DNA from: an uncultured virus (IMG/VR IMGVR_UViG_3300025889_000100)
Lineage: Duplodnaviria > Heunggongvirae > Uroviricota > Caudoviricetes
Virus record (IMG/VR): IMGVR_UViG_3300025889_000100
Length of the DNA: 64,000 nucleotides
Strand: one strand, 5' to 3'
Part shown: in pieces, positions 2,068 to 39,723 of the stretch
Layout: the number at the start of each line of letters is the position of its first letter
How positions within the stretch are numbered: the stretch's first letter is position 1
Translations under genes and position numbers: made by a program
The notes under the pieces: model-generated
The model's input: the letters and a program-made list of their open reading frames with translations, nothing else
The model's database searches: none
Told to the model about the DNA's origin: nothing

Positions 2068-2448
2068 ATGAATTGGCAAAATATTCTTAAAAATACTAAA
2101 AAAGATATTTTAGAGGGCCTTCATATTCTACAACAAAATATTACTCCAGACATTCTAGAAAAACATACAATGGAAAGAGGCATACATATGTTTAATATAA
2201 AAAAGAAAAATGATAGTTTTTATTTTGGTCGTGTTAATCTGCGAATAAACGAACCTAAACCTGCTGGTTTTGGTTCTTCAAAAAATATCAAAAAACCTAA
2301 AGAAAAAATTGTTTCTATAATTAAAGAACTTAAAGAAAGCAATTTGAAAAATTATTCCGATGAGAATGGAAAACTTAGGGCATTATTCGTAGTGATTACT
2401 CCAAACGTTGATGAACAATACCTAGAGATAGATATGAAGCGTAAATAA
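2068..2448 (+). CDS. Hypothetical protein with WxxILK leader (MNWQNILK)
   Basis: ORF track; start moved to the ATG after the GATGA RBS-like sequence. Confidence 0.75.
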   Translation: MNWQNILKNTKKDILEGLHILQQNITPDILEKHTMERGIHMFNIKKKNDSFYFGRVNLRINEPKPAGFGSSKNIKKPKEKIVSIIKELKESNLKNYSDENGKLRALFVVITPNVDEQYLEIDMKRK

Positions 2449-2485
2449 AAATTCCAGCCCAAATTTTGAGAAAAACGTGATTACT

Positions 2486-2704
2486 ATGTGGAAAGACGAA
2501 ATTATTAAACGACAACCAAGAGATGTGCAACTAGAAAAGAATATTAATAGATTTATCAAAGAAATTGAAAATATGGAAAACAGATTATCAACAATGGATA
2601 TGTATATTCCTTTACCTCAAAAAGCAGAAAGACCAATTAAAAAGGCTCTTAAGGCTTTAGAAGAGGCAGAAGAGGCACTAAGAGATGTTCTCGATGAAGT
2701 TTGA
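2486..2704 (+). CDS. Hypothetical protein with leader (MWKDEIIK)
   Basis: ORF track; ATG follows a GTGA RBS. Confidence 0.75.
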   Translation: MWKDEIIKRQPRDVQLEKNINRFIKEIENMENRLSTMDMYIPLPQKAERPIKKALKALEEAEEALRDVLDEV

Positions 2705-2745
2705 AAAAAAATTCCAGCCCAAAATTTGAGAAAAGGTGATTAAAG

Positions 2746-3006
2746 ATGAAATGGGAAGATATATTAAAAGACACCAATACAGCAATAGCGAAGATTCTAA
2801 GTAAAATATTTGTAAAAGAGTATATTCAAGAACTCTTAGCAAAGCCTAATCCGAAACAAGCGACTATTGAAGTATTAGAAAGTGAAATTAAATATACAAA
2901 ACGAACTATGGAAACCATAGTTCCTTATAAAATCCTAATAGAAGAACATCGAAAAAAGATTGCTAAATATGAAGAGGCTATTGAGAAAATAAAGAATTTA
3001 AAGTGA
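2746..3006 (+). CDS. Hypothetical protein with leader (MKWEDILK)
   Basis: ORF track; GGTGA RBS. Confidence 0.8.
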   Translation: MKWEDILKDTNTAIAKILSKIFVKEYIQELLAKPNPKQATIEVLESEIKYTKRTMETIVPYKILIEEHRKKIAKYEEAIEKIKNLK

Positions 3007-3010: not shown

Positions 3011-3250
3011 ATGTGGAAAGACACTCTAAAGAAAAGAAAAACTAACTTAGGAAGAGGTTCTGGAGGCATGACTCCAGAAGAACTTAAAGAGGCTAAAGAA
3101 AGACTTAGAAGAAAAGAAAGAAGAAAAATACCTCTCAGCGAATTAAGAGAACAAGAAAACGACCCAGAATTTAGAGCAAAACAAGAAAGGGCAAGAAGAA
3201 GCGTCAAAGATAAAAAAAGTGATTATTATGACATGGGAAGAAATACTTAA
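3011..3250 (+). CDS. Basic hypothetical protein with leader (MWKDTLK)
   Basis: ORF track; K/R-rich. Confidence 0.75.
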   Translation: MWKDTLKKRKTNLGRGSGGMTPEELKEAKERLRRKERRKIPLSELREQENDPEFRAKQERARRSVKDKKSDYYDMGRNT

Positions 3251-3542
3251 AGAAAAATCCATATTTATAAAATTTCGTGAAGAATTAAATAATCTCCTGC
3301 GCCAAGCAGATATTCTTGTGGGAAAAAAGTATAGCACTAGAGAAAAACAGTATGGTACTAGAGAAGAAGCATTTTTAAGGAAAGTTGATGCATTTTTGAA
3401 CAAGTTGAAAGATAACGATATTACTGCTAAAACGGATAAAGGTCAAATTTTCTTTGATGCAAAAACAACAAAGAATCTAAAGGAATTGATTGAATTAGCA
3501 AAATACTACAATGCTGGTAAAAGCGGAAAAGGTGATTTTTAA
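3228..3542 (+). CDS. Hypothetical protein with leader (MTWEEILK)
   Basis: ORF track; ATG follows an AGTGA RBS. Confidence 0.75.
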   Translation: MTWEEILKEKSIFIKFREELNNLLRQADILVGKKYSTREKQYGTREEAFLRKVDAFLNKLKDNDITAKTDKGQIFFDAKTTKNLKELIELAKYYNAGKSGKGDF

Positions 3543-3557: not shown

Positions 3558-3785
3558 ATGTGGAAAGATGAAATAATTAGAAAAAGGTCATTTACTCGAC
3601 TTTATAGTAGAAATGAAAAAAGAGAAGCAATCAAAGAAGTAATGGATAGTTTAGAAGAAACTATCAAAATTGCTGAGAAAAATAATGAGCAGATGAAGTT
3701 GATGATTCTTCAAAGTTTAACATCGGCACGATTTGAATTACAAAAAAGATATGACACCATACAAGGCGATAGACCTTATCAATAA
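3558..3785 (+). CDS. Hypothetical protein with leader (MWKDEIIRK)
   Basis: ORF track; leader DNA nearly identical to that of the 2486 gene. Confidence 0.75.
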   Translation: MWKDEIIRKRSFTRLYSRNEKREAIKEVMDSLEETIKIAEKNNEQMKLMILQSLTSARFELQKRYDTIQGDRPYQ

Positions 3786-4039: not shown

Positions 4040-4456
4040 ATGTGGAAAGGAATTGTTAAAAAACAAATTAGAAAAGGCGCAAGTTACGAAGAAGATTTCG
4101 TAAGTAAACATAAAGGTAAGCAGGATGATTTCGGTATTTATGTTCGTTCACCTGAAAATGTTAGCATTATTAAAGAAGAAGCAACATTAGAATGGACAGG
4201 TTCTATTGAAGTTTATTCTGCTGGCTTTGGTGCATTGAGTTCTTCATCCAATAAATTAACACTAGAAATAGAATATGTTAAAATGGGGGATGACGACGAG
4301 AAAGAAATAACTAAAGAGTTCGTTTTTACTGGTAATTTTGAAGATGATGGAGGCGGTAATCCTGAAGATATTACAGTTGATATGGATTTTTCGGATTTTA
4401 ACAATCCAAAGATTACAAAAGTGAAAGTAGCATATGAGGGGCGATTTAATGAGTGA
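4040..4456 (+). CDS. Acidic beta-rich protein with leader (MWKGIVK)
   Basis: ORF track; GGTGA RBS. Confidence 0.8.
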   Translation: MWKGIVKKQIRKGASYEEDFVSKHKGKQDDFGIYVRSPENVSIIKEEATLEWTGSIEVYSAGFGALSSSSNKLTLEIEYVKMGDDDEKEITKEFVFTGNFEDDGGGNPEDITVDMDFSDFNNPKITKVKVAYEGRFNE

Positions 4457-4604
4457 TTGGTCAAAACTTCTTAAAAATCAGAAAGAAGCGTCAAGCGCAC
4501 AAAGCCTCGCTACTTTACAACAAAATCTAAAAGATGCACCAAGATATATTAAAATTGCATTAAATGAAATAGAAAGATACCTAATGGGTGAGAAAAATGT
4601 ATAA
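4449..4604 (+). CDS. 51-aa protein with leader (MSDWSKLLK), missing from ORF track
   Basis: Translated by hand; fills the gap between its neighbours and overlaps both by 8 nt. Confidence 0.7.
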   Translation: MSDWSKLLKNQKEASSAQSLATLQQNLKDAPRYIKIALNEIERYLMGEKNV

Positions 4605-5391
4605 GGACATATTGAAGAGAGATAGAATGCCAAAGCCAAAAAGGGGCAAAGGCCGTCGTAGACAAACTGCTGAAAAAGACCGTAAAAAAGATGAATTTGG
4701 CGGTATGCAAATTAGTGGTGATGTTGAAGCAATTATTGGAAATAAAGAAGAGCGTGATAAAAGAGATGAAAGAGAAGCAGCCGATAAAAAATCTGGAAGG
4801 GTAAATCCCTTTGAAATAACTGCTGATTTTGCTCAAGCCACAGATGTTTTTGAAAAAGACTTTAATGACTTTGAAATATTTGATGAAATGAAAAAGCGAG
4901 TTAATGGGCTTTTTAAAGAGGCTGAGTTTTATTTTAAGCAAGGTGAAAAAAGGCAAAAGCAATTAGATACTGAATTTAAAGAAGCACTTAAGCGAAAACA
5001 AGGTATTGCTAGAGTAAGAAAAACTATTGAAACTTCAAACTATTATAGTCTTAAGAAATTCAATGAAAAACTAAAAAGCGAGAACATGAAAATTGGCAAA
5101 AAGAATTATCCAGTTATTGAAGTTTTAGCAGCAATTGTGGTTGTTACTATTCAGGGTGATGATAAAGAAGCAACTGTTAGAGAAACATTTAATGACGCAG
5201 CCGATTACTTAGAAAGAAGGAATTTTGACCTTCTTACTCAAGGAGCGAATGGTTATAAGTTTTTGATAGATTTGGCTGAAAGATTAGGAATAGATGAATA
5301 TGATAGGCCACGCATGGTAGTAGGAAGAACAGGTAAATTTTATCTTGAAGAAGGACAAGCCACATATTTTGATTTAGACGATGTTCTTTGA
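4597..5391 (+). CDS. Hypothetical protein with Tyr-variant leader (MYKDILK)
   Basis: ORF track; GGTGA RBS precedes the ATG at 4597. Confidence 0.8.
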   Translation: MYKDILKRDRMPKPKRGKGRRRQTAEKDRKKDEFGGMQISGDVEAIIGNKEERDKRDEREAADKKSGRVNPFEITADFAQATDVFEKDFNDFEIFDEMKKRVNGLFKEAEFYFKQGEKRQKQLDTEFKEALKRKQGIARVRKTIETSNYYSLKKFNEKLKSENMKIGKKNYPVIEVLAAIVVVTIQGDDKEATVRETFNDAADYLERRNFDLLTQGANGYKFLIDLAERLGIDEYDRPRMVVGRTGKFYLEEGQATYFDLDDVL

Positions 5392-5403: not shown

Positions 5404-5814
5404 ATGAACTGGTTTGAAGTATTGAAAAAAACAATGAACGCTTTAGAGTTCATTGAATATTTTCAAGAAAAGTTGGGAGGAAAACCAACTTATCCTAGTA
5501 CTGCTAGTTTAAGAATACCTGAGAATAAACTCACAAGACCTATCGTTTACAAATTAGATTATCCAAATGGCTACATTAAAGTAACGATGGGTAAAAAAGG
5601 AGAAAAGCACGTTAATGTAAATGGCGTAGTTGTGGCAAATGTTTTTAACCTAAAGGATGCAGTAGAAGAAGTAGAAGAGGCCGTTGGCTCAGATACCTTT
5701 GAAAAGAAAGCAGGTGGAGTATCATTTGGTGGTCATGGAACAAATCCAGAACTATTCAATATAAAATACGGAGGTGGAAAAGGTGGCAAAAAACGTAAGA
5801 AAGAAGACGAGTAA
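5404..5814 (+). CDS. Hypothetical protein with leader (MNWFEVLK)
   Basis: ORF track; GGTGA RBS. Confidence 0.8.
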   Translation: MNWFEVLKKTMNALEFIEYFQEKLGGKPTYPSTASLRIPENKLTRPIVYKLDYPNGYIKVTMGKKGEKHVNVNGVVVANVFNLKDAVEEVEEAVGSDTFEKKAGGVSFGGHGTNPELFNIKYGGGKGGKKRKKEDE

Positions 5815-6865
5815 ATATAATAAACAGTCTATTACGCAAACCTTTGAAGGTTCTGATTTTCAAAAAGATTACAATGATTGGGAAAATCATTGTGATAGTA
5901 TTGACAAAGATGAGTTACAAGTTCAAAATGGAACGCTTTTGGACTTTTTAGTTCAACACGTTGATGAAGCAAGAGATGGCACATCAAGAAATGGTGCGAG
6001 ATTGCCAATCAAAGAAATACGTGAGATTTTAAATTCAGATATTATTACTAAGCCCGCTATTCAAAAAGTAAAAGATATGCGTAAGCATATTTCAGAAATG
6101 AAGAATAGCAAAGGTAAGGGTGGATTAGACCCAGCATTCATTTCATTTACAGATAGAGCCTATGATAAAAGAAACAAGTTTAGGTCAAAGCGAACTGTTT
6201 ATGGACATTACATGACTCAGAATTATGTTAATAGAAAGACGTTTAAGGATAAAAATTTCAAAGGTGAACCTGTTGATGGAGATTGGCTTACAGGAAAAAA
6301 TCCTCCGCATCTTGCATTATTCTCGGAAACAGAAGGAGATTACAGTAAGCCCTTTGGTTTGTTAAAAATTCTCGATAATGCCATTGATTCATTTAAAGAA
6401 ATCACAGTTCAGCCTATTATTGATAGTATCACTAGAGCGAATGCTATGAAACTTGATAGTATTTACCCGATTGAAAAGTTCTTCGACAATGTTGTAAAAA
6501 CAGATGGTTATTGGAAAGCAAGCGGGGAATTGAAAACTTCTTCTGTTGCTTCTGAATTCAAAGCAACACAATTTGATGTAAAGCCAAGTGGTGCAAGAAT
6601 CATACAAAGGCTTACAAATTTAGAAGATGTTGCGGGAAAAATTACTGCTTTTAAGATTAAAGCGACAATACCAATTAATTATTTGGTTGGTGAAGCACTT
6701 AAGAGAAAGAATAAGAAAAACGCACCTGCTGGAGAAAAGAACCGAGCATGGGCAAAATCAGGTTTTGATTACAGAAAGACTCGAAAAGAAGTATATGGCA
6801 AAGATACAAAGAGTCCAGACAAAAAGGTAATAAGTAAGTCATGGCAAGAAGTCATAAGGGCGTGA
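5774..6865 (+). CDS. Basic hypothetical protein with C-terminal motif (KSWQEVIRA)
   Basis: 363-aa ORF; start codon uncertain. Confidence 0.8.
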   Translation: MEKVAKNVRKKTSKYNKQSITQTFEGSDFQKDYNDWENHCDSIDKDELQVQNGTLLDFLVQHVDEARDGTSRNGARLPIKEIREILNSDIITKPAIQKVKDMRKHISEMKNSKGKGGLDPAFISFTDRAYDKRNKFRSKRTVYGHYMTQNYVNRKTFKDKNFKGEPVDGDWLTGKNPPHLALFSETEGDYSKPFGLLKILDNAIDSFKEITVQPIIDSITRANAMKLDSIYPIEKFFDNVVKTDGYWKASGELKTSSVASEFKATQFDVKPSGARIIQRLTNLEDVAGKITAFKIKATIPINYLVGEALKRKNKKNAPAGEKNRAWAKSGFDYRKTRKEVYGKDTKSPDKKVISKSWQEVIRA

Positions 6866-6870: not shown

Positions 6871-7152
6871 ATGTGGAAAGCCATATTGAAGGATGAAAGG
6901 TTTGATGCCTTTAGACAAAATATGTCGAGTATGCACGAAGATATGCTAAGAGCAGAAAAAGGTTCAGTAATTTCAAGAGCCGAAAGTATGATAGAATCCT
7001 TGTTAGATTACAAAGAAGACTTGATGGAAAAGAAGGAAAATAAAAGACTAGATAGATTTATTGATGACAATTTTCCTATAAGGCAAATAGATAGTCTAAT
7101 CGCATCGTTAAGAAAATTTAAAGAAAGTATGGAAAAAAAATTAGGTGTTTAG
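6871..7152 (+). CDS. Hypothetical protein with leader (MWKAILK)
   Basis: ORF track; start moved to the ATG after GTGA. Confidence 0.75.
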   Translation: MWKAILKDERFDAFRQNMSSMHEDMLRAEKGSVISRAESMIESLLDYKEDLMEKKENKRLDRFIDDNFPIRQIDSLIASLRKFKESMEKKLGV

Positions 7153-7153: not shown

Positions 7154-7489
7154 ATGTGGAAGAACGAAATTAAAAAGAATAGACGCAATTTGTCAAGAGA
7201 TGACATTAAAAGATATTGGCCTGAACCTAGTGAATGGTATAAAGATTTAGAAGAAGTTCGGGGATTTGGTCAAATGTTTGAAGATTTTTTTAATCTCGGA
7301 GTAGGAGGCGGGGAAACTATTTGGTATTATTGGGAAAAACCATGGAAATGGAATCCTGAATATAAAATCCTATATGATGCAGGAATTAAATTAGGCTTAG
7401 ACCCTGAAGATTTAAAAGAATATATGTATGATAATAATATTTATTCTTTACAAGATTTAAAGAAACACATAGAGAAAAAGGATGATTAG
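7154..7489 (+). CDS. Trp/Tyr-rich hypothetical protein with leader (MWKNEIK)
   Basis: ORF track; AGGTG RBS. Confidence 0.75.
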   Translation: MWKNEIKKNRRNLSRDDIKRYWPEPSEWYKDLEEVRGFGQMFEDFFNLGVGGGETIWYYWEKPWKWNPEYKILYDAGIKLGLDPEDLKEYMYDNNIYSLQDLKKHIEKKDD

Positions 7490-7490: not shown

Positions 7491-7973
7491 ATGTGGAAAG
7501 ATATTTTAAAAGGCGAAGAAGTTCATCCTAGCGTAAAAGGTTTCATTGGTAGAAGAATGTCAAAAATTCGTCAAGCGATGATTAAAGAACAAAAAGAAAT
7601 AGAAGAAGCGGAAGAGTTTATGCAAGGTAAACTTTATGCAAGTTACCCCTTTAAAATAAAAGACCAAGTAGAAAGGGGCATAAAAGAGCAAAAAGAAAAA
7701 ATAGAAAAATTAGGTAAAATAATAGGTGCTAAATTTAGTCCACAACATGATAAATTCCCTATGACCCCTTCACAAAGATTAAGCCCATCTACTAAAAAAT
7801 TAAAAGTTAAAAGAATGGAAAGACCAAGTGCGTTTAGTTATAATCCTAAAGATACTTTTGATTCAAATGTTATGAGAAGATTTAATATTTCTGAGAAAGA
7901 CTTTAATGCGATGAGTAGAGAAAGAAAGGATGGTTTTAGAGAAGGCTATAAATTATTAGAAGGGGATAAATAA
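7491..7973 (+). CDS. Hypothetical protein with leader (MWKDILK)
   Basis: ORF track; GGATGA RBS. Confidence 0.75.
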   Translation: MWKDILKGEEVHPSVKGFIGRRMSKIRQAMIKEQKEIEEAEEFMQGKLYASYPFKIKDQVERGIKEQKEKIEKLGKIIGAKFSPQHDKFPMTPSQRLSPSTKKLKVKRMERPSAFSYNPKDTFDSNVMRRFNISEKDFNAMSRERKDGFREGYKLLEGDK

Positions 7974-7974: not shown

Positions 7975-8631
7975 ATGGTTACTCGTAAGCGTTGTGGTTT
8001 TTGCCAACATGAAAATAGGGAAGAACTTGAATCCTTGTTAGAAACAGGGCAAGCAAGTTGTGATGCCCTAGATTTGCAGAATGATTGGAGAAGTGGAACT
8101 TCCTCCCAACATCAAAGAAATCACATGGGGAACTATGAAATGGCTTCTAATCCTCGTTGTGTGCTATGCACAGACCCGATGAGAAAACACTATGAGATTG
8201 CGCTTTCGGAAGGTAATATCACAAGTGAAGCAGTTTCTGAGGCTCTAAACGTGTCGAAAGAACAGGTGCAACGGCACATGAAGCACCACTTGTCGCCATT
8301 GGTACAGAAATCTGCGGCCTCCTTGATAGCGAAAAAGGAGGTAAATGAAGTTGATTTGTTATCAGCGAATGTTCAGCGATTAGATATGAAATTAGATGAT
8401 GTATTCGCTATGGATGATTTAGACCCAAAGGTGATTGATAGTCTCACCAAACTCGCTAGAGAGATTCGTGAATCATTAAAGTACCTTATGGAGTTTAAAG
8501 GCAAATTGGTTCATAAAAGACAAGATACAGTTATTTTCGCACAGATGCAAATTGTTCAAGAAGTGCTTGCACAGAACAATCCTGAGATTTGGCTTGACAT
8601 TAAAAAAGAAATGCAGGAGAGATTACAATGA
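7975..8631 (+). CDS. Tandem CxxC...HxxxH Zn/HTH protein with C-terminal helices; candidate terminase small subunit
   Basis: Two repeats (CGFC...HQRNH; CVLC...HMKHH) followed by oligomerisation-type helices. The TerS role is inference. Confidence 0.55.
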   Translation: MVTRKRCGFCQHENREELESLLETGQASCDALDLQNDWRSGTSSQHQRNHMGNYEMASNPRCVLCTDPMRKHYEIALSEGNITSEAVSEALNVSKEQVQRHMKHHLSPLVQKSAASLIAKKEVNEVDLLSANVQRLDMKLDDVFAMDDLDPKVIDSLTKLAREIRESLKYLMEFKGKLVHKRQDTVIFAQMQIVQEVLAQNNPEIWLDIKKEMQERLQ

Positions 8632-8925
8632 GTTGGGAAGATATAATTAAAAAAGAAAATGAATTACCCAAACCATTCAAAGATGTCATAAAATGGAAAG
8701 GCAAATATTATAAACACTATGATACTAAAACAAGTGATTATGCACCTTTAGGAATTTATTATATATATTTTCCATCTGATAAAGATGGTAATTTAGTCGG
8801 TAATTCTCTAACTCATGAAATTAAAGAACTTGCTTTAGATTCGGATAGTGTAGATGCTAAGATAATTGAAGGCGATTTTGGCTATGTTGGTGTTGATTAA
8901 AAATATACAGGAGAGATTACAATGA
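8614..8925 (+). repeat. 18-bp direct repeat CAGGAGAGATTACAATGA (8614-8631, 8908-8925) flanking gene 8628-8900
   Basis: Exact match read from the sequence. Confidence 0.9.
8628..8900 (+). CDS. Hypothetical protein with leader (MSWEDIIK)
   Basis: ORF track. Confidence 0.8.
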   Translation: MSWEDIIKKENELPKPFKDVIKWKGKYYKHYDTKTSDYAPLGIYYIYFPSDKDGNLVGNSLTHEIKELALDSDSVDAKIIEGDFGYVGVD

Positions 8926-13751: not shown

Positions 13752-13755
13752 TATT

Positions 13756-14373
13756 ATGGTAGAAAAGTATTCTAAAGATGACATTGAATTTAAAGAAATG
13801 TCAGAAGATGAAGCAGTTGCTACATTCGTTAAAGATGGCTATGATAAATATGTTAAAAGAAGCGTAAGATATGGGAGTAATCTTTCTCCAGATTCAGAAT
13901 GGGCAAAAAGCCCAGCAAAAATGTTTGTTGCTTTTTATGAAGATAAACCAGTTGGTGTCATGGGATTTTCAGAATACAAGGGAGTTCTTCTAGGTGCAGG
14001 TATTCATATTCGTGAAGATGAAAGAAAAAAAGGCTTATTTGGAATTTTAGTAGATAAAATTCTTTCTGAGAAAGGAAGTAAGACTCTTTACATTAACGTA
14101 GCAAAAGAAGGATTAGGTGCTGCATTTCGGAAAAAGGGGTTTAAAGATATGAAAAAGGATGAACTCCCTCAAGACATACAAGAAGACCTTCAGGGAACTA
14201 AGTATTCAGACCAAGTTCAAAAGTGGATGAAATTAAAGGCTAAAGATATGGCAGAAGACAAGCCTATGCCACAAATTACTACTCGTATAAAAGGAAAAAC
14301 AGAAAAGACAAAGGATAGAACCTATTCTGGTAAAAACTTCCCCGAATGGAAAAAGATTCTTAGGGGTGATTAA
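13756..14373 (+). CDS. GNAT-family N-acetyltransferase with C-terminal WKKILR motif
   Basis: FVAFYEDKPVG strand, motif A-like IHIREDERKKGLF and motif B-like AAFRKKGF. Confidence 0.7.
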   Translation: MVEKYSKDDIEFKEMSEDEAVATFVKDGYDKYVKRSVRYGSNLSPDSEWAKSPAKMFVAFYEDKPVGVMGFSEYKGVLLGAGIHIREDERKKGLFGILVDKILSEKGSKTLYINVAKEGLGAAFRKKGFKDMKKDELPQDIQEDLQGTKYSDQVQKWMKLKAKDMAEDKPMPQITTRIKGKTEKTKDRTYSGKNFPEWKKILRGD

Positions 14374-15187: not shown

Positions 15188-16618
15188 ATGGAAATAGAAG
15201 AATTTAATCTAGAACATCAAATGGATATGGAGTTATCAAAGAACTCCTTTCCATATTTTTTCCAACACGTTCTAGGTTTTGACTTTCCAACATACATACA
15301 AGAATGGTATGGCTTGATGAATGATACACAAAGAACTGTTATTATTTGTAGCCGTGACCACGGAAAATCTGTATTTATGCATTCATGGGTTGTTTGGAAT
15401 TTAGTGTTTAGACCTCCGCCATATCAAATGCTTTACATCTCATCTAACCAAAAACAGACAATGGTTCACATGAGAGATATTGATAAGATGTTTCAGCACC
15501 CATTACTTAAAAAATTCAAACCCTCTAGAGGTTGGGCTATTGGAAACATTACATTAACAAACGGTAATCAAATTCTTGAGCGTTCCGTTGGTTCACAGAT
15601 TCGTGGTTTGCACCCACAAGAAATTATTATTGACGACCCCTTGAAAGAATTTAGCGTAAGCGGTATTCAAAAGGTTACAGACTGGTTTTACGGGGATATG
15701 ATTCCTACTCTTCACCATACTGCATCTTTGAGAGTTATCGGAACTCCGTTCAGTTATACGGATATTTACCGACAACTTGAAGAAAATGCCGCATATACTG
15801 TTAGAACCTATCCTTGTTTAAATGCTCTCAATGAACCCCTTTGGCCTGACCGTTGGGACTATGATGCTTTAATGTCAAGAAAGGCTGAAATTGGTTCACT
15901 TAAATTTACAAGAGAATATATGTGTGTTCCTATTTCAACTGGTACTTCTCTCTTTAATCCAGAATATTTAGACCTTGCAAAGAATAAGAACTTAGTTTTG
16001 AAACCTAGTAGAAGAGAAGGATATAAGTATTATGTGGGAGTTGACCCAGCAATTTCAACAGATGGCGACTATAACGTAATTACTGTATTAGAAGTTGATG
16101 AAGATGACAATAAAAACATTGTATATATTGACCGTTCTAAAAACGTAGAGTTTAGAGAAAACATCAATAAAGTTAAACTTATTGGTAAAATATTCAATCC
16201 AGAAGTAATCCTTTTTGAAACAAATACATTCGCAAAGTCATTTACTCAGGAACTTCGCAACGTCGCAGATTTAAATGTTCATGACTTTAACACTACTCGA
16301 AAGAAAAAAGAAGAAATTATCTTAAATTTGCAAATGACCTTAGAAAACCAAAAGATGAATTTTCCTTATGGTAATGAAGAAAGTCGAAGAGTTACTTCTG
16401 CTTTGGTAGAAGAACTGTCTATGTTTGCTATTACAGAACGTGGAAGATTTGAGGGAATCGGGGCGCACGACGACATGGTGATGAGCCTAGCACTAGCCAA
16501 TTCAGCGACGTTTCAGATGACGGATAACTTCATACTCTTAGATGACATGGAGATATTCGGGAGTTCTAAACCGTCTAACAATCGAGTTAAAACACCTTTC
16601 TTGGGGTTGAATTTTTAA
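15188..16618 (+). CDS. terL: Terminase large subunit
   Basis: Walker A SRDHGKS, IRGLHP/IIIDD Walker B, GTP coupling motif, nuclease VGVDPA and HDDMVMSLALA. Confidence 0.95.
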   Translation: MEIEEFNLEHQMDMELSKNSFPYFFQHVLGFDFPTYIQEWYGLMNDTQRTVIICSRDHGKSVFMHSWVVWNLVFRPPPYQMLYISSNQKQTMVHMRDIDKMFQHPLLKKFKPSRGWAIGNITLTNGNQILERSVGSQIRGLHPQEIIIDDPLKEFSVSGIQKVTDWFYGDMIPTLHHTASLRVIGTPFSYTDIYRQLEENAAYTVRTYPCLNALNEPLWPDRWDYDALMSRKAEIGSLKFTREYMCVPISTGTSLFNPEYLDLAKNKNLVLKPSRREGYKYYVGVDPAISTDGDYNVITVLEVDEDDNKNIVYIDRSKNVEFRENINKVKLIGKIFNPEVILFETNTFAKSFTQELRNVADLNVHDFNTTRKKKEEIILNLQMTLENQKMNFPYGNEESRRVTSALVEELSMFAITERGRFEGIGAHDDMVMSLALANSATFQMTDNFILLDDMEIFGSSKPSNNRVKTPFLGLNF

Positions 16619-16944
16619 TGTGGGAAGATATTCTTAAAAGAAAAAAATCTTACACTGGTAAGTTAAAAGACCTTGTTAATGAAGTTTATACTGGTAAAAT
16701 AGTGGGTGCTGATTTTAAAAAGGTAAAACAACTCTTAGCAGATGAAGACTTCGATATTAGATTTCACGTTGAGTTACAAGTAAAGCGTGGAGAATTTGTT
16801 CACTTTTTTACATTTGCAGCGAGAACTTTTATGGATTTCTTGACAGGATTATCAACAACTATTGTAGGCATGAAGATACCATCTTTGGGTAGAGAATTCA
16901 ATAAAAATAGAGATATTATCAGAATATATTCAGATGACGTTTAG
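16618..16944 (+). CDS. Hypothetical protein with leader (MWEDILK)
   Basis: ORF track; TAATG coupling to terL. Confidence 0.8.
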   Translation: MWEDILKRKKSYTGKLKDLVNEVYTGKIVGADFKKVKQLLADEDFDIRFHVELQVKRGEFVHFFTFAARTFMDFLTGLSTTIVGMKIPSLGREFNKNRDIIRIYSDDV

Positions 16945-18325: not shown

Positions 18326-18787
18326 ATGAACTGGATGAATATATTGAAGAGAAAAGTAGATACTTACGAAGAATACAAGAAAGAGCGTGAAAGATTACTT
18401 CAAGAACAGAAGAGGGAACAACAAAAGATATTGGATTCTCTATTTGATGAAAATGGTAAAAGAAAGAGATTTCTTAACAATGAAGAAATGAAAGAAATGG
18501 GGAAAATAAACGAACCTCTTAATAATTTTGATGATATAAATGAAGAATATTATGACAGAATGATTAGCGATGAAAAATTTGCAGAAGAAAATGAAAAGAG
18601 AATCAAAAGAGAAAGAGAACGAAAGGCACAGATGCAAGAAAGAGGATTAAAAGGCCGCAGACACGGTGGAAGAAAGAAAAATAAAAAGCGAAAAGGTCAA
18701 TTTCAAGTTCAAAGAGGTTCAGGTCAATCTAAATCACAAAGAAGAAGTGGTGGAAGAGATGACTCAAGACGATTCAGAAAATTATAG
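18326..18787 (+). CDS. Highly charged protein with leader (MNWMNILK) and basic tail
   Basis: ORF track; GGAGG RBS. Confidence 0.8.
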   Translation: MNWMNILKRKVDTYEEYKKERERLLQEQKREQQKILDSLFDENGKRKRFLNNEEMKEMGKINEPLNNFDDINEEYYDRMISDEKFAEENEKRIKRERERKAQMQERGLKGRRHGGRKKNKKRKGQFQVQRGSGQSKSQRRSGGRDDSRRFRKL

Positions 18788-24839: not shown

Positions 24840-25207
24840 ATAAAATGACATGGGATTTTTATGAAACTGGAGAGGAATTTATCCTCAAAGAAAAAGAAGT
24901 AAAGAAAGAACTTTTGGACACATTAAGCCCAAAAGAAAAAAAGCGCATTAAGAAGATTTTACAGTCAGCACAGCCGACTGAATTTTTTGGTCAAGACTTT
25001 ACGAAGTTAGGTGAGTTAGTCGGTGAACTTAAATCATTAAACTTCATTAAATCAGATGACAAACTAAAGAAGAAAATGAAAGGCATGGATGAGCGCAATG
25101 TAGATATAGTAGCCTCCGCATCCAAACTTCGTAAGGAGTATGAATTGCTCTATCGTCAATTGCGAGATTTAATCTATCCTAAAGGTAAAAAGGAGGAAAA
25201 GAAATGA
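24836..25207 (+). CDS. Hypothetical head-region protein
   Basis: ORF track. Confidence 0.75.
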   Translation: MNKMTWDFYETGEEFILKEKEVKKELLDTLSPKEKKRIKKILQSAQPTEFFGQDFTKLGELVGELKSLNFIKSDDKLKKKMKGMDERNVDIVASASKLRKEYELLYRQLRDLIYPKGKKEEKK

Positions 25208-25446
25208 CAGAAGAAAACAAGGTAAGTAACGACATTTTGGCTATATTGAAAGCCCTAACAGATAAAATTGAATCATTAGAGAGAACAGTTTATGCAAAGG
25301 ATAATTTGCTAATGAAATCTGGTCTTGTTGTTTCTGAAAGCCCTACTCCAACAATGGATAATAAGATTGCTTCACCCGTTGGTGATGTAGCAAACATGGA
25401 ATGGTCTGAAATTCACAAAATGGTAGAAAAGGTAGGAGGTCAATAA
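25204..25446 (+). CDS. Mini scaffold-like protein: coiled coil plus C-terminal MEWSEIHKMV
   Basis: C-terminus matches the protease/scaffold C-terminus MDWSDIHKMV. Confidence 0.75.
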   Translation: MTEENKVSNDILAILKALTDKIESLERTVYAKDNLLMKSGLVVSESPTPTMDNKIASPVGDVANMEWSEIHKMVEKVGGQ

Positions 25447-28498: not shown

Positions 28499-28544
28499 TG
28501 CGTGGGTATTATATACTCAAATCAGATAAACTGGTTTGAACGAC

Positions 28545-29744
28545 ATGAGCATCAGTATTAGTGCATCCAGAAATGATGATTTTCTCATCATTAAAAGCGA
28601 TGAACTGATGATTGGTGGTTATGCTTCAATTGAAATTGTTGATAAGCAAAATGACTTAATCACGCTTAAAGCATTAAACGAAGCAGTTCAAAAATTTATG
28701 TCAAAGTCTGAATATAGAAATGTAATGACAAATCATTCAAATGTTCAAGTCGGAGAGGTAGTAGATTCATATAGAGATAAAACAGGGAGATTGTGGAAAA
28801 CTGAAGTTGATGACGTTGGTTTCTTTGTTGTAATTAAATTAAGAGATGATATAGAAAAAGCCAAAGAAGTTGGTAGAAACATTCGCAAAGGGTCATTAAG
28901 GTCTTTTAGCATTGGTGGACAGGCATTAAAAAAGTCTAAGAAAAACCACGACGAATTAGGAGAATATAACGAAATTAGTAAGTTAGAACTCCATGAAGTA
29001 ACAATATGCGAAAAAGGAATTAATCCCGAAGCGAGATTCGATATTCTAAAACAGGATAAAGGAAGTGAAAAAATGTCTGATAAACTAGAAAAAGCATTGG
29101 AAGAATTAGACGCATTGATGGAAGAAGTCAATACGTTGAGAAAGGAAGAAGAAGAAGAAGGAAAGGAAGCATTAGAAATGGCTGACCCTAAAACGGAAGA
29201 AATGGAAATGTCTGATGAAAGTGAAGAAGAAATGGAATCTTCTGAATATGCTGATTTTGAAAGCGCAGATAAGGCATACCTCCGCACATTAGATGGTGCT
29301 GGTAATCAAATCGGTGAACCTGCTGATAGAATCGTCATTAACAATGGTCGCCCGACATCTTCGGATATGCCTGTTGTTAAGGCATTCGGAAACAATGAGT
29401 TAGAAACTCTTGATTTGTCCGTTGGCAACATTGAGAAGGCTTACGAGGCTTTCCGACAAGAACAACTTGAAAAGTTGGCTTATGATAACTTGCAAAAGTC
29501 TTTTGAAGACCGATTTGCAAGAGAAAAGAATGTAAGAGAGAATACTCTCGCAAAGTCGCAATATGACGCACAAAGCGAAATTGCTTCTCTAAAGGATGAA
29601 TTTACAGCATTGAGAAAGTCCTTAACTGCTGAAAAGGAAACAATCCTAAAGGCTCAAGAAGAGGCTAAGGTTGAACTCCCAAGTATTGATGATTTGGCCG
29701 AAATGGATTGGTCAGACATTCACAAGATGGTAGGAGGTTATTAA
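28545..29744 (+). CDS. HK97-type prohead protease fused to a C-terminal scaffold region
   Basis: GYAS...VDKQND, TNHSN, SFSIGG and LHEVTIC...INPEA motifs; acidic coiled-coil C-terminal half; directly upstream of the MCP. Confidence 0.92.
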   Translation: MSISISASRNDDFLIIKSDELMIGGYASIEIVDKQNDLITLKALNEAVQKFMSKSEYRNVMTNHSNVQVGEVVDSYRDKTGRLWKTEVDDVGFFVVIKLRDDIEKAKEVGRNIRKGSLRSFSIGGQALKKSKKNHDELGEYNEISKLELHEVTICEKGINPEARFDILKQDKGSEKMSDKLEKALEELDALMEEVNTLRKEEEEEGKEALEMADPKTEEMEMSDESEEEMESSEYADFESADKAYLRTLDGAGNQIGEPADRIVINNGRPTSSDMPVVKAFGNNELETLDLSVGNIEKAYEAFRQEQLEKLAYDNLQKSFEDRFAREKNVRENTLAKSQYDAQSEIASLKDEFTALRKSLTAEKETILKAQEEAKVELPSIDDLAEMDWSDIHKMVGGY

Positions 29745-29745: not shown

Positions 29746-31080
29746 ATGACTGGATATATTAACACAATTGCAGATTTAGAAGCACAAACATACGGAACAG
29801 GCACTTTTGCTGGCAATTCTTTGCTTAAGCAAGCAGGAATGGTTGGTGGCATTCATACAGGACATGATGGTGGCCCATCTTTTAGCGGTTCAGCCGTTTC
29901 AGATGTTTCAGCCCTATACAACGTCGTTTACGGACAAAAAGTTTGGTCTATGTTGAATAGAGAAGTAAATGCTCTTTCAATGATTTCAAAGCGACCATAC
30001 TCTTCTAGCGGTTGGAGAGTTCTAAAGTCAAGACCTGCGGGTGGAAGCGGTAATCTATTTACTGTTGATACTTCGGGAACTGCTTCTTTAGGAGAATTAG
30101 GTTCTGATGACCCAAGAGCAGATTTAATTGGTGGTGTTCCTGAAAACGCTGCATTGTCTACATCAGCAGATGGTTTAGGCCCAATTGCACCAACATATGC
30201 TCAATTGAACATGAGTCCAAAGGTTATTGCTCATCAATTCGATTTCAGCGAATTGGCTATGGAAATGGCTCAGATTGACGATGGAATTGGCGATATTAGA
30301 GCGCAAATGCGTGAAGATATGGGCAAGCACCACGCAGAAGTTCAAAACAAGATGTTAGTTATGCCTTTGGAACATTTCGGTGAATCTGCGGCTATGCCTA
30401 ACATTACTAACAACTATACCTCATTAAACAAGGTTATCTCTTCAAGAGCAGAATTGTTGGCTATTGATGGTGGAGTTATCGCTACTGATACTACTTCTGC
30501 TTCTAACGCATTAGGACAGATTTACGGTAGTGAGAGATTTACTGCCGCATCTTTCCTAGATTCTGAAGTTGATTTTGGTTCGGGATATGCTTCTGGAAAT
30601 GTTCGTTCTTTGACTCTAACTCGTCTTAATGACATGATTAGAAACCTAAGACTTGCAGGTGGTTCACCAAAGGTTATTTTAACTGGATATGATACCATTC
30701 AAGCACTTGCTGACCTATTGCAAAGCCAAGAAAGATTTATGGACAGAAAGGAGATTGTTCCTACTGTAAATGGTGTTCGTGGAACAAAGGGTCAAGAAGT
30801 TGGATTTAGAGTTGCAACATACTATGATATTCCATTGATTCCTGTTAAGGACATGGCTACAACGGGTAATGCTTCAACAAAGTTATCTGACCTATTATTC
30901 CTCGATACTGACCATCTATGGCTTTCTGTTATGAAGCCAACTCAATACTTTGAGGATGGTATTGCGAATGGAAACCCATTTGGTGTTGGAACTCTCGGAA
31001 ACCGAGCATTGTATCGAACAATTGGTGAAGTCGGATGTTCCTTCTTTAAGGGTCAAGGTAAGATTACTAACATTCAATGA
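29746..31080 (+). CDS. Major capsid protein (HK97 fold)
   Basis: Position after the protease; 444 aa; halovirus-like segments (YGQKVWSMLNREVN, YYDIPLIP, LFLDTDHL). Confidence 0.9.
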   Translation: MTGYINTIADLEAQTYGTGTFAGNSLLKQAGMVGGIHTGHDGGPSFSGSAVSDVSALYNVVYGQKVWSMLNREVNALSMISKRPYSSSGWRVLKSRPAGGSGNLFTVDTSGTASLGELGSDDPRADLIGGVPENAALSTSADGLGPIAPTYAQLNMSPKVIAHQFDFSELAMEMAQIDDGIGDIRAQMREDMGKHHAEVQNKMLVMPLEHFGESAAMPNITNNYTSLNKVISSRAELLAIDGGVIATDTTSASNALGQIYGSERFTAASFLDSEVDFGSGYASGNVRSLTLTRLNDMIRNLRLAGGSPKVILTGYDTIQALADLLQSQERFMDRKEIVPTVNGVRGTKGQEVGFRVATYYDIPLIPVKDMATTGNASTKLSDLLFLDTDHLWLSVMKPTQYFEDGIANGNPFGVGTLGNRALYRTIGEVGCSFFKGQGKITNIQ

Positions 31081-33763: not shown

Positions 33764-34193
33764 TTATTATGTGGTTTACAATTCTTAAGAAACCTTCTTG
33801 GTATAAAGAAAGTAATCCATATAAACCAAAAAAAGATAAAAAATTTCAATACATGGCAGATTTAACTCCTGATTGGGATGACATTCTAACATGGGAATCA
33901 AAGGATAAAAAAGCAAGAGGCGAGGCTACTTACCACGAATCATTTGAAACAGGTGAGTATATGTGGAATATTAGAGTCTTTACTATAAAAGAAGGAAATC
34001 AAGGAAAAGGAAATGCTAGAAAATATTTAAAAGAGTTTATTGAAGAATTAGATTCGCTAGAATATACAAACTCTCCCCCTTCTGTTTCAAAAATTAAAAA
34101 CCATGCATTAGGTTTTTGGGAAAAAATGAAAGAAGAAGGTTTAGTTTCAGATTTACAAAAATAATAAAAGGGACTATTGATTATTATGTGGTT
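33758..34193 (+). repeat. 19-bp direct repeat TATTGATTATTATGTGGTT (33758-33776, 34175-34193)
   Basis: Exact match spanning the start of two adjacent leader-motif genes. Confidence 0.9.
33769..34164 (+). CDS. GNAT-like acetyltransferase with leader (MWFTILK)
   Basis: NQGKGNARKYL motif A and ALGFWEKM motif B. Confidence 0.7.
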   Translation: MWFTILKKPSWYKESNPYKPKKDKKFQYMADLTPDWDDILTWESKDKKARGEATYHESFETGEYMWNIRVFTIKEGNQGKGNARKYLKEFIEELDSLEYTNSPPSVSKIKNHALGFWEKMKEEGLVSDLQK

Positions 34194-34743
34194 CGATATT
34201 CTTAAAAGTTTAAGACGTTATGCTCTTTCAGATAGTGATAAAATAAATAAAAAAGAAAGGCCAACAGGAACAGGAAGTAAGCCTAGAGGATTATGGTATT
34301 CTTTTTCACTAGGACAGGGATGGCTAAAATTTATGCAAGAAGAAAGACATTATAATTTGCAAGGAAAGATGGATTCATATAAGTATATTTTAGAACTTGA
34401 TACGTCTAGTGTTAATATTTTAAAAATAAATACTAAAAAGAAATTAGATTCCTTTATTAAAATCTACAAAATAAATCCTTCAGATGATATGGATGCTAAA
34501 TTTTGGTGGCCTTTGGTTGCTCTAAGGTATGATGGAATAGAATTTTCTAACGGTATGTATGCTAAACATGATACTATAAGAAGAAATTGGGATATGGATT
34601 CTGGTTGTATTTGGAACACCACTTCATTAAAAATAAAAAAAGTTAAACCATTAGAAGAAAGACAAAAAACTTATGTAAACCCTAGTATGAGAGAATACTA
34701 TAAAATGAGAGAAGAAGAGATGAAACGAAGGGAGAAAGATTAG
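34186..34743 (+). CDS. Protein with leader (MWFDILK) and KPRGLWYS...YDGIE...WDMDSGCIW domain
   Basis: Conserved-looking viral domain; an ADP-ribosyltransferase-like fold is only an inference. Confidence 0.7.
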   Translation: MWFDILKSLRRYALSDSDKINKKERPTGTGSKPRGLWYSFSLGQGWLKFMQEERHYNLQGKMDSYKYILELDTSSVNILKINTKKKLDSFIKIYKINPSDDMDAKFWWPLVALRYDGIEFSNGMYAKHDTIRRNWDMDSGCIWNTTSLKIKKVKPLEERQKTYVNPSMREYYKMREEEMKRREKD

Positions 34744-37633: not shown

Positions 37634-37638
37634 TACAA

Positions 37639-38943
37639 ATGGGAACAGTTCGCTCGCCAAGTGATTATACCACAATCAATGTAGATTATTCTACTGGAAG
37701 TGGTTTTTATACAGACAAGGGAGCAGTTTCTGATTTGCTTCAAGTTTCAGCATTTTCCGCCTCCACAAACCCCACGCAAGCGCAGGTCGGTTCTATCATT
37801 AAGAGGGTCGAGGGAATCATAGATGACAAAGTTAAGAGGTCGTTTCGCCCGATTATTACTCAACATGAATATCATAACTTTGAATTCATTAGGCATCCCG
37901 CTAGAGCATACTATGGTGGCTATGTTGGATATGTTCAACTTTCTATGATGAAAGTAAGAAAGATTGTTTCTCTTCAGGTATGGCAGGGAAGTAGTTATAT
38001 TGAATTGGCATCAGCACAAGCAAAAATCGAACTACTTGAGAATTATAGAGACATTTATTCAATAGTATTGCAATTGCCAAATAGCGGAACAGAATTTGAA
38101 ATGCTTTCAGAAGATACAGGTTCTCTACAAAAAACAGAATTTAATACATCTTTTGGAGAAAAGACAACTGCTAATGAATTAGTTGCTTTAATCAATGAAC
38201 AGTTCCCATCGCCAACTGCACAATTTACAGGTGCAACAGAAGCAAAAGAATTACATGTTAGTAATAGAAATATTTCAGATTTCTTTTACGCACAAAAGAA
38301 TACAGAAAATTCAAAGGAAGTATTTATTTCTTCACTATTGGCTGGTGAAGATGGTTCTGATTGCACAATTAAAGTAAAGACTCAACAAGCAATAACTCAT
38401 ACAAATGGAAGTTTTAATCTTGTTGTTGCTGATTCATCTAAATTAGTTGTGGGTATGGAGATTGAAGATAATCATATTCCAAGTGGAACTACAATTACTG
38501 CTATTGTAGATTCAACTAATGTTACTATGTCTGCATCAGCAACAAATACTGGTTCAAGCACAGGAACATTTATCGCAACAAATACTTCTATTCCAACAAT
38601 TTGCACAGTAACTCAATTTACAGATAAACAAGATGTAAGAAGATTAGGTTCTTTTTGGAATATCGGAGAAGAAGGTAAAATTTTCTTCTTGCAGGATTAT
38701 CCATATCATACTCAGAATTCTATTATTGTTTCGTATATTGCAGGAGATAATAGAGTACCTGCGGCTATTCACGAAGCAGCCACAAAATTAGTTGCGGCAG
38801 AAATACTGCGACATGATGACCAAACTATCCTTATTGCTGATACTGGGGGCAATATATCAACCAAGGAAAAGTATGATATACTGCGAAAGGAAGGCATGGA
38901 TATACTCAAAGGCAAGGGAGATTTAGTTTATTTCTTAGGGTGA
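37639..38943 (+). CDS. Head-tail adaptor with inserted beta domains
   Basis: N-terminal helix IIKRVEGIIDD and C-terminal VSYIAG...VPAAIHEAATKLVA typical of gp15/gp6-like adaptors; position. Confidence 0.7.
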   Translation: MGTVRSPSDYTTINVDYSTGSGFYTDKGAVSDLLQVSAFSASTNPTQAQVGSIIKRVEGIIDDKVKRSFRPIITQHEYHNFEFIRHPARAYYGGYVGYVQLSMMKVRKIVSLQVWQGSSYIELASAQAKIELLENYRDIYSIVLQLPNSGTEFEMLSEDTGSLQKTEFNTSFGEKTTANELVALINEQFPSPTAQFTGATEAKELHVSNRNISDFFYAQKNTENSKEVFISSLLAGEDGSDCTIKVKTQQAITHTNGSFNLVVADSSKLVVGMEIEDNHIPSGTTITAIVDSTNVTMSASATNTGSSTGTFIATNTSIPTICTVTQFTDKQDVRRLGSFWNIGEEGKIFFLQDYPYHTQNSIIVSYIAGDNRVPAAIHEAATKLVAAEILRHDDQTILIADTGGNISTKEKYDILRKEGMDILKGKGDLVYFLG

Positions 38944-38949
38944 TTAAAG

Positions 38950-39723
38950 ATGTATGATGATATTATGAAAGCGGAAACTTATGCAGAAACTTACGTTGCT
39001 ATTTCTAAAATGAGCAACGAAGAAGTAAATAATTTATTGAGAGATTTAGTAGGGCCAAATAAAGATAATGTTCCAAATGCTCCTAATTTACCCTTGACTC
39101 CACAAGAAATGGAAAGAATAAATCAAATGAGACGAGCAGGTAAAGATATGCCTTTAACTATCCAAGATAAAAAATTCTTAACTGATGCAGTTAGAAATGC
39201 AAAGAAAAGAAAAGTAAATAAAAAAAGAACTGCATTTCAACAAGCGTTAAATAAACCAAGAAAAGTTGAAAATCCAGTAAAAAGGGCTAAAAGATTAGGT
39301 CAAACACAACAACCTGCCCAAACTTCATTAAATCCGAAACAGCAACAGGCTATGGAAATGTTTAATCAGGTTCAAGAAAATAAAAGAAGAAGATTAGCCC
39401 AACAACAACAAGTTCCTTTACCACAAAAAAACGTTCCATTACCTAAAACACCAAGAACAATGTCTAACGAGGAAATGCAACGAAGAATGAAAGCAAGAAG
39501 AAAAAGAGAACAATCTCAACAACAACCTCAGCAACAACCCCAAACAACACAACAACAGCCATTTCCACCAGCACCTCCAAGAGAGATTCCTTTTCCGCCA
39601 CCATCTCAACAACCTCAACAAACACAACGAGAGTTACCACCAAGAGTTAAATCACTTTTACAAAGAAAACCAAGAAGAGTAATTAGAAGAAAGCAACCAG
39701 TTACAGTAAATCCCAAAGCGTGA
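38950..39723 (+). CDS. Q/P-rich low-complexity protein with variant leader (MYDDIMK)
   Basis: ORF track. Confidence 0.75.
   Translation: MYDDIMKAETYAETYVAISKMSNEEVNNLLRDLVGPNKDNVPNAPNLPLTPQEMERINQMRRAGKDMPLTIQDKKFLTDAVRNAKKRKVNKKRTAFQQALNKPRKVENPVKRAKRLGQTQQPAQTSLNPKQQQAMEMFNQVQENKRRRLAQQQQVPLPQKNVPLPKTPRTMSNEEMQRRMKARRKREQSQQQPQQQPQTTQQQPFPPAPPREIPFPPPSQQPQQTQRELPPRVKSLLQRKPRRVIRRKQPVTVNPKA

Follow-up and report, generated by a model that had tools for sequence, protein, structure and literature searches.

A short terminal peptide shared by unrelated proteins of a magrovirus: a candidate address for loading proteins into the virus head

Why should some 25 proteins that otherwise have nothing in common carry nearly the same short peptide, built around a tryptophan, at one of their ends? 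This question is raised by a 64-kb stretch of DNA (hereafter, the window) from an uncultured virus, IMG/VR record IMGVR_UViG_3300025889_000100, which we refer to as G001. The window spans positions 7397-71396 of the 93,195-bp record, for which completeness is rated at 100%. By its matching genomic traits, the source virus is a group-B-like magrovirus (group B/B1, of Marine Group II archaea). Magroviruses, which have not been cultured, infect these archaea, occur worldwide and are among the most abundant archaeal viruses of the surface ocean; for the majority of their genes no function is known. We refer to the shared peptide, W-x-x-[IV]-[LI]-[KR], as the tag and to the proteins that bear it as carriers. 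Our favoured reading, to which we assign a probability of roughly 45% on the strength of sequence patterns and of analogy, is that the tag is a portable address that loads its carriers into the virus head in the manner of the capsid-targeting sequence (CTS) of bacteriophage T4.

A tryptophan-containing tag at protein termini

The tag was counted in a curated list of the window's genes, which holds 78 genes, 64 on the plus strand and 14 on the minus strand. With the strict pattern M-x(0-2)-W-x-x-[ILV]-[ILV]-K, an N-terminal tag is found in 18 of the 78 genes, compared to an expectation of 0.009 from composition; 2000 within-protein shuffles gave a mean of 0.013 tagged genes and a maximum of 2. 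Matches to the core in annotated proteins are N-terminal in 18 of 18 cases. Seven further genes carry variants, of which four are loose (threonine at the first aliphatic position, or tyrosine in place of tryptophan; starts 3011, 4597, 22014 and 38950) and three are shifted by one residue, with one extra residue between the tryptophan and the aliphatic pair (starts 2486, 3558 and 7154; Table 1). Approximately one gene in three of the window is tagged, and about a fifth of the genes of the whole genome. A six-frame scan for W..[ILV][ILV][KR] gives 28 matches, 25 of them on the plus strand, and of these 18 lie at the starts and 2 at the ends of open reading frames (ORFs). At the DNA level, a degenerate pattern for W-x-x-I-L-K has 13 matches on the plus strand of G001, and its reversed control has one.

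An initial annotation of this DNA had listed 25 leader starts, all of which give the peptides that it named. It had also held the motif to be missing from tail and replication genes, and the 78-gene list confirms this, as the tag is found on none of the 14 minus-strand (replication) genes and on none of the recognised tail genes of the window. All carriers in the window are encoded on the plus strand, which is the capsid-building strand. Two genomes of the sister clade hold ATG-started tagged ORFs on the opposite strand, one in G012 (minus strand, 94331; MSWFSILK, 235 aa) and one in G013 (minus strand, 32867; MTWEDVLK, 102 aa), so the restriction to one strand is not absolute.

Across seven genomes we collected 92 N-terminal carriers, having left out 2 of 94 regular-expression matches as shadow ORFs inside the capsid region of G002. 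Their consensus, with the number of carriers after each residue, is M-[S 30, N 19, T 16]-W-[K 26, E 22, Q 20, F 15]-[D 37, E 18, N 12]-[I 65, V 16, L 11]-[L 71, I 13, V 7]-[K 89, R 3]. When the leader is masked, BLAST sorts the 92 carriers into 71 families and the 18 strict carriers of G001 into 18 families, in agreement with the earlier statement that these proteins share no similarity past the leader.

The coding sequences of the tag indicate that it is selected as a peptide and not as a DNA element, a view that the initial annotation had taken from synonymous codon variation alone. The codons do vary (isoleucine: ATT 9, ATA 5, ATC 1, others 3; leucine: CTT 7, TTA 3, TTG 3, and CTA, CTC and others; lysine: AAA 12, AAG 6), the tag has survived a shift in G+C content from 33% to 44%, and its C-terminal copies, described below, are conserved. 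The genomes G011, G012 and G013, which have a G+C content of 42-44% compared to 33% and major capsid protein (MCP) identities of 57-64%, hold 10, 8 and 8 carriers, and the tag is still present at 48% MCP identity in the contig L212. In homologues found with the leader masked, the N-termini of which were judged by eye, the tryptophan, the two aliphatic residues and the lysine are retained and the x positions differ. For the family of the 19186-19425 protein, the tryptophan and leucine are invariant and the lysine is at least 90% conserved, and the basic linker that follows varies through deletion and extension.

The tag does not extend to every relative. For its DNA pattern, 12 related records show strand specificity, and the counts elsewhere lie close to those of the reversed control. 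No enrichment was found in G007 and G008 (MCP identity 33-37%; 45-47% G+C), which have 1 and 3 pattern matches, and the 69-kb record G015 (MCP identity 34-41%; 30% G+C) has 0 matches compared to 8 for its reversed control. Likewise, a 3-Mb bacterial metagenome-assembled genome (MAG), which served as a cellular control, shows no enrichment, with 129 matches compared to 102 for the reversed control. Among the records examined, the pattern matches place the tag in a single virus clade, to which it is apparently confined. The contig L212 is, together with L210 and L211, one of the only cellular-genome contigs that hold an MCP relative; these belong to bacterial MAGs labelled Maricaulis and Altibacter and look like mis-binned magrovirus-like DNA. 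Tag leaders, a scaffold tail of the kind described below and head genes are all present on L212.

Not part of the initial annotation is the presence of the same motif at the extreme C-terminus of two proteins, those encoded at 5774-6865 and 13756-14373. We trained a position-specific scoring matrix (PSSM) on 74 leaders from other genomes and scored with it 326 tryptophan positions of the G001 proteins. The resulting ranking places 14 N-terminal leaders first, the C-terminal copies of 13756-14373 and 5774-6865 in 15th and 16th place, and more N-terminal leaders after them. Per genome, 3-4 proteins have the motif 1-7 residues from their C-terminal end. Homologues of the 5774-6865 protein in G011-G013, at 24-26% identity, end in DWRTIMK.., DWREIVK.. 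and SWEEILK., and an ESM Atlas search gave no family for this protein; the C-termini of the 13756-14373 homologues read KWMEVLK.. in G004 and KWFYVLR.. in G002. The last position of the tag is arginine in 7 of the 12 C-terminal copies noted, compared to 3 of the 92 N-terminal ones.

These data bear on two explanations that would confine the role of the shared peptide to the start of the gene. According to the first, the shared start is a by-product of gene birth or shuffling, in which a start cassette made up of a ribosome-binding site and the first codons is reused by recombination and the peptide is without function. Tagged genes do turn over fast, and recombination near the leader can be seen in the database proteins P0296 and P0297, which have only the tag and the basic linker in common with the 19186-19425 protein (91% identity over 14% of the query) and then diverge; that they continue differently after the linker suggests that recombination just behind the leader makes new tagged proteins. 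However, codons differ at every tag position, the tag is still present after the G+C shift and at an MCP identity of only 48%, its key residues stay the same where the linkers vary, and conserved C-terminal copies cannot be start cassettes. Nor is a Shine-Dalgarno-like site any commoner before tagged genes: GGTGAT, a general gene feature here, stands before 17 of the 25 tagged genes and before 23 of the 39 untagged genes of the plus strand. We consider a reused cassette very unlikely.

According to the second explanation, the first residues are selected for translation, in that the nascent peptide or its codons affect initiation or early elongation. The position of the tag, mostly directly after the start codon and with M and W one residue apart in 78 of 92 carriers, would fit such an effect. 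The C-terminal copies do not fit, and neither do the highly expressed structural proteins, which have no tag, or the invariance of tryptophan, a residue with a single codon. In addition, the 24836-25207 family, which has a canonical MSWQxILK in the sister clade, here has a 9-residue insert that splits M-T-W from I-L-K. We therefore give an effect on translation next to no credence, and neither explanation accounts easily for variable codons, a split tag and copies conserved at the C-terminus.

The linker between the tag and the folded domain ranges from 0 to 30 residues in the 33769-34164 family and from 0 to 45 in the family of the 13756-14373 protein. The AlphaFold2 (AF2) model of the latter, with a mean predicted local distance difference test score (pLDDT) of 68, has a GNAT-like domain at residues 1-165 followed by residues 167-205 at pLDDT below 50, within which DSSP assigns a short low-confidence helix to the tag at 197-202. 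The AF2 model of the 33769-34164 protein instead shows the N-terminal tag as a beta-strand packed on the domain, with a pLDDT of 69 for the first 10 residues. Given these differing shapes in two carriers, the free tag probably has no fixed structure. The portable tag proposed by the initial annotation is borne out to the extent that the tag is a peptide-level module on unrelated proteins, and a short motif on the free, tethered end of many unrelated proteins suggests an address for one common partner.

Carrier genes and their turnover

The tagged genes have a median gap of 4 nt and are packed, on the same strand, among and around the genes for terminase, portal, scaffold, capsid and head-tail proteins. 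The carriers are smaller than the untagged proteins (median 124 aa compared to 201 aa), and none of those in the window is a recognised structural, tail or replication protein. GNAT matches aside, searches of Pfam and PHROG gave no match above cut-off for the window's tagged proteins, and the same searches with 72 tagged proteins of other genomes gave only DUF6321, DUF6943 and weak matches at chance level.

Even in close relatives, the tagged genes prove hypervariable. The MCPs of G001 and G004 are 98% identical, yet only 5 of 25 tagged genes have a homologue in G004, at a median identity of 44%, compared to 44 of 49 untagged genes, at a median identity of 84% (Fisher p = 3e-9). The 269-aa carrier encoded next to the terminase gene, at 14374-15183, has only 7 relatives in 5.8 billion protein clusters. 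It was considered as a small terminase and rejected for this reason; so few relatives argue for an accessory gene and not a core packaging gene.

For two carriers an enzymatic fold can be proposed. The 13756-14373 protein scores 20.4-21.5 bits against Pfam GNAT, on either side of the cut-off of 20.7, and its structural model matches 170 PDB chains at E <= 0.001, the top chains listed being nearly all acetyltransferases. Its predicted structure is that of a GNAT-fold acetyltransferase. The neighbours of the 33769-34164 protein in the ESM Atlas, with scores of 0.94-0.95, carry PF00583, and the top rows of a Foldseek search are nearly all acetyltransferases, every one of them at E >= 0.01; this carrier is probably a truncated GNAT core.

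Two other features of the hypervariable tagged block were observed. The only well conserved gene within it, at 7975-8631 (+), is 58-91% identical in 6 of 6 compared genomes and encodes a protein with Cys-x-x-Cys pairs near its N-terminus and no family match, which may be a regulator or packaging factor. A 25-nt element, AATTCCAGCCCAAA[T/A]TTTGAGAAAA, is found three times on the plus strand, at 2029-2053, 2450-2474 and 2710-2734, where 0 copies were expected from 100 shuffles. The copies end 14-15 nt upstream of the start codons of the first three tagged genes, and the 12-nt core of the element occurs twice in G004. It may be a promoter or processing site for the block.

The head as a possible destination

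If the tag is an address for the virus head, it would act from a free end of its carrier, usually as M-[STN]-W-[KEQF]-[DEN]-I-L-K at the N-terminus, sometimes within 1-7 residues of the C-terminus, and often via a flexible linker. While the head is being assembled, it would dock the carrier onto a single partner shared by all carriers, most likely the inner face of the procapsid, either the N-arm region of the capsid protein or the scaffold core. Small, soluble, fast-changing proteins, the two putative acetyltransferases among them, would in this way be enclosed in the head and would enter the next host cell together with the DNA. The S78 prohead protease may remove the tag after its lysine.

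The family matches of the shell protein (Pfam SU10_MCP, 26.0 bits compared to a cut-off of 24.1; PHROG major head protein, 5e-22) place it in HK97-type families. The N-arm of such a capsid protein usually faces scaffolds. In the magrovirus MCP, a clade-specific insertion of approximately 20 aa (residues ~29-52, window ~29830-29900), QAG-x-V-G-G-I-H-T-G-H-D..., with conserved histidines (GIHTGHD), directly follows a conserved LLK in the N-arm. This insertion is found in tag-bearing lineages, including L212, whereas the distant MCPs in the alignment, which include P0128 from the tag-less G015, do not have it.

C-terminal tails that bind the capsid are found in the HK97 protease and the P22 scaffold. 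Likewise, the magrovirus protease/scaffold protein (28536-29744) and its 80-aa scaffold-like paralogue (25204-25446) end in a conserved tryptophan-containing tail, M-[DE]-W-S-[DE]-I-H-K, which is a weaker relative of the tag. The tails of the two proteins follow M-[DES]-W-[SGD]-[DE]-I-[HNR] in 7 of 7 genomes, in L212 and in G015, and have in common with the tag the tryptophan, an acidic residue at +2 and isoleucine at +3. Since the tail motif is present in the tag-less G015, it is older than the tags; G007 and G008 have neither tags nor the tail motif. The 80-aa protein, which ends in ...GGQ in a virus that has a ThiF-like gene, was considered as ubiquitin-like, and this was dropped since the GG is not conserved in its homologues.

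More tentatively than the address itself, and again from sequence and analogy, we suggest that docking to the procapsid might take place at the N-arm insertion, with the tag imitating the scaffold tail. Any protein that acquired a tag would then be delivered, and the at least 71 families in seven genomes would be swapped nearly completely between strains with near-identical capsids.

The lysine of the tag also raises the question of whether the tag is a processing mark instead of an address, that is, a degron or mainly a site that the prohead protease recognises or cuts after [IL]-[LI]-K. A prohead protease of family S78 is among the products of the virus genome, and the conserved LLK-QAG in the MCP N-arm and ILK-A in scaffold proteins resemble the tag lysine followed by glutamine or alanine. 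Alanine or glutamine is enriched after the tag lysine itself (20 of 92 carriers compared to a background of 0.089; p = 1.5e-4). However, ILK-like triplets are common in a proteome rich in K, I and L, the scaffold sites are not kept as ILK across clades but vary as I-[LARK]-K, and cutting after a C-terminal tag would take off only 1-7 residues. A role confined to processing is accordingly quite improbable.

Several findings weigh against delivery to the head. The scaffold tails score only 5.2 and 3.6 bits in the PSSM, ranks 27 and 29 of 326, compared to 7-21 bits for the tags, and are level with an internal tryptophan of the MCP. G015 has the scaffold-tail motif but no tags, so tail and tag are not strictly coupled. 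The co-occurrences of tag, tail and N-arm insertion trace to about one evolutionary event, and the independent events in distant relatives are too few for an argument from co-evolution. The basic charge of the window's carriers (median isoelectric point (pI) 9.3, compared to 5.35 for untagged proteins) does not hold across the seven genomes (median pI 7.8; 49% compared to 47% above pI 8), and it was dropped as a mark of DNA-associated internal proteins. AF2 gives the tag differing shapes, a helix in one carrier and a strand in another. Finally, the cargo would comprise approximately 25 different proteins, or about one gene in five of the genome, which is unusually large for a virus of 93 kb.

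Some of the same data could be accounted for if the tag were a linear motif for another hub, of viral or host origin. Unfoldases, proteases, factors for replication or transcription and virus-factory scaffolds are examples; the hub would use the tag for localisation, timed turnover or assembly, and the carriers would never enter the virion. Motifs that bind hubs typically lie at either end of a protein, hang on a flexible tether and occur on many unrelated carriers, phage host-takeover genes that are not packaged are also small, hypervariable and accessory, and the low scores of the scaffold tails leave the link to the capsid weak. On the other hand, no candidate hub was identified, and the tagged genes lie inside head-gene operons and not in a separate early region. 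We regard a hub of this kind as rather unlikely. The viral chaperonin was considered as a required hub and rejected, because it is missing from the complete, tag-bearing genomes G011-G013.

For loading of the head, which we continue to favour, T4 offers the model. The genomic setting of the tagged genes and their turnover resemble those of the T4 internal proteins. T4 and the magrovirus both have enzymes among the carriers (Alt in T4; the putative GNATs here) and encode a prohead protease next to the capsid gene. The magrovirus, however, infects archaea, and its protease is of family S78 and not of the T4 gp21 type, which goes by a family name other than Peptidase_S78. T4 has a handful of CTS carriers, compared to approximately 25 per magrovirus genome. 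In both systems (for T4, IPI-III and Alt) a short N-terminal peptide is common to unrelated proteins, and the loci of its carriers are highly diverse between related viruses; passages of PMC3012670 portray the internal proteins of T-even phages as highly diverse defence proteins with only the CTS in common. The T4 CTS is described in parts of PMC5694885 as a propeptide of 10-20 residues that is sufficient to package foreign proteins, whereas the magrovirus tag has 6 defined residues and also occurs at C-termini.

Other systems share particular features with the proposed one. Encapsulins, as PMC10960027 and PMC8049743 present them, have an HK97-type shell and load unrelated cargo through a short terminal peptide on a flexible linker; they enclose one or a few metabolic enzymes, in contrast to the dozens of hypervariable proteins here, which would be packaged into an infectious virion. 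In phages phiKZ and SPN3US, many head-internal ejection proteins are targeted and processed by the prohead protease, but according to the relevant parts of PMC5694885 their propeptides are 80-160 residues long and family-specific, unlike a shared motif of 6 residues. The likeness to the tails of the HK97 and P22 type is qualified by the modest resemblance between scaffold tail and tag noted above.

Genome setting and meaning for magroviruses

The plus strand of the window encodes the terminase large subunit, portal, S78 prohead protease, MCP, tail tube protein and tape measure protein, as well as an ATP-dependent ligase amid the head genes. On its minus strand are a split family-B DNA polymerase, nucleases and an ERCC4-type endonuclease, and G001 beyond the window encodes a second ligase, a clamp loader, a UvrD-like helicase, ribonucleotide reductase, a Cpn60/TCP-1 chaperonin, a ThiF-like protein and a TFIIB-like protein. 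The split polymerase, the two ATP-dependent ligases (one inside the structural module), the ribonucleotide reductase and the chaperonin are magrovirus traits as set out in passages of PMC5434244. Parts of the same paper relate the MCP, portal and protease of group B/B1 magroviruses to those of haloarchaeal tailed viruses; the MCP, the sole protein that we compared (by tblastn), is 24-25% identical to those of HVTV-1, HCTV-1 and HCTV-5. An MCP relative is encoded by 596 of 599 candidate stretches in IMG/VR, and 838 protein clusters match the MCP at E <= 1e-5.

Other genes were noted along the way. The replication arm of G001 (L097, all on the minus strand) holds genes for the ThiF-like (E1-like) protein (12886-13443), the TFIIB-like zinc-ribbon protein (13604-14455), a PC4-like protein (8198-8419) and the Cpn60/TCP-1 chaperonin (9489-11030). 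ThiF-like and TFIIB-like genes are present in 6 of 6 compared genomes, and the chaperonin only in the closer three. A homing-endonuclease candidate, a further trait in the magrovirus description of PMC5434244, lies in the structural module at 16953-18323, with a weak PHROG match (1.3e-4) and an FIDSDGY motif seen by eye. After the baseplate-like genes, a 2190-aa ORF at 46714-53286 (+) has no Pfam or PHROG match, and its identity to the counterparts in relatives is 23-37%; presumably it encodes a giant fibre or adhesin. The tagged genes and the head genes among which they lie are collected in Table 1.

Table 1. Tagged genes of the window and the head genes around them, with coordinates in the window
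Feature	Coordinates	Strand	Remarks
Tagged ORF, MNWQNILK	2068..2448	+	strict; start checked
Tagged ORF, MWKDEIIK	2486..2704	+	shifted variant
Tagged ORF, MKWEDILK	2746..3006	+	strict
Tagged ORF, MWKDTLK	3011..3250	+	loose variant
Tagged ORF, MTWEEILK	3228..3542	+	strict
Tagged ORF, MWKDEIIR	3558..3785	+	shifted variant
Tagged ORF, MWKGIVK	4040..4456	+	strict
Tagged ORF, MSDWSKLLK, 51 aa	4449..4604	+	strict
Tagged ORF, MYKDILKR	4597..5391	+	Tyr variant
Tagged ORF, MNWFEVLK	5404..5814	+	strict
C-terminal tag, ...SWQEVIRA	5774..6865	+	start codon uncertain; G011-G013 homologues with C-terminal W-x-x-I-[VML]-K
Tagged ORF, MWKAILK	6871..7152	+	strict
Tagged ORF, MWKNEIKK	7154..7489	+	shifted variant
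Tagged ORF, MWKDILK	7491..7973	+	strict
Tagged ORF, MSWEDIIK	8628..8900	+	strict
Predicted GNAT-fold acetyltransferase, C-terminal tag EWKKILRGD after disordered tail 167-196	13756..14373	+	
Tagged ORF, MGWKDILK, 269 aa	14374..15183	+	start checked
Terminase large subunit, untagged	15188..16618	+	
Tagged ORF, MWEDILK	16618..16944	+	strict
Tagged ORF, MNWMNILK, very basic	18326..18787	+	
Tagged ORF, MSWKEILK, pI 11.0	18915..19181	+	
Tagged ORF, MNWQEVLK	19186..19425	+	tag, variable basic linker, conserved domain
Tagged ORF, MSWRDILK	19422..19730	+	
Tagged ORF, MKWEEIIK	19727..20095	+	
Portal protein, untagged	20137..21774	+	
941-aa protein just after portal gene, Tyr variant (GTG start) SYSEILRK	22014..24839	+	protein at same position in G011-G013 begins MSFMDILRK
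Core protein, split tag M-T-W-DFYETGEEF-I-L-K	24836..25207	+	sister clade MSWQxILK
80-aa scaffold-like protein, C-terminus ...MEWSEIHKMVEKVGGQ	25204..25446	+	
S78 prohead protease, long C-terminal scaffold-like part, C-terminus ...MDWSDIHKMVGGY	28536..29744	+	
Major capsid protein (HK97-type families)	29746..31080	+	~20-aa insertion after LLK in N-arm
Tagged ORF, MWFTILK	33769..34164	+	tag, 30-aa linker, probable truncated GNAT core
Tagged ORF, MWFDILK	34186..34743	+	
Tagged ORF, MYDDIMK, pI 11.2	38950..39723	+	Tyr variant

The initial annotation supposed such a tag to be undescribed for archaeal viruses, and the literature searched agrees: a term search of the main texts of three magrovirus papers (PMC5434244, PMC11706807 and PMC10160649) found no mention of it, and full-text literature searching on magrovirus protein motifs and on the targeting of packaged internal proteins in archaeal viruses gave no such tag among the matches listed.

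For magroviruses, one portable tag would provide a common functional handle on about a fifth of each genome, and it would single out those genes that evolve fastest and are probably directed at the host. If packaging is indeed what the tag is for, magroviruses would offer the first description of capsid targeting in an archaeal virus, by one of the shortest signals known. Since the tag is found at either terminus, it would be attractive for loading HK97-type shells with chosen proteins, as a natural, minimal and programmable packaging signal. Magroviruses would then possess a system for the delivery of effectors, and the cargo set would be the main arena of the arms race between these viruses and their hosts.

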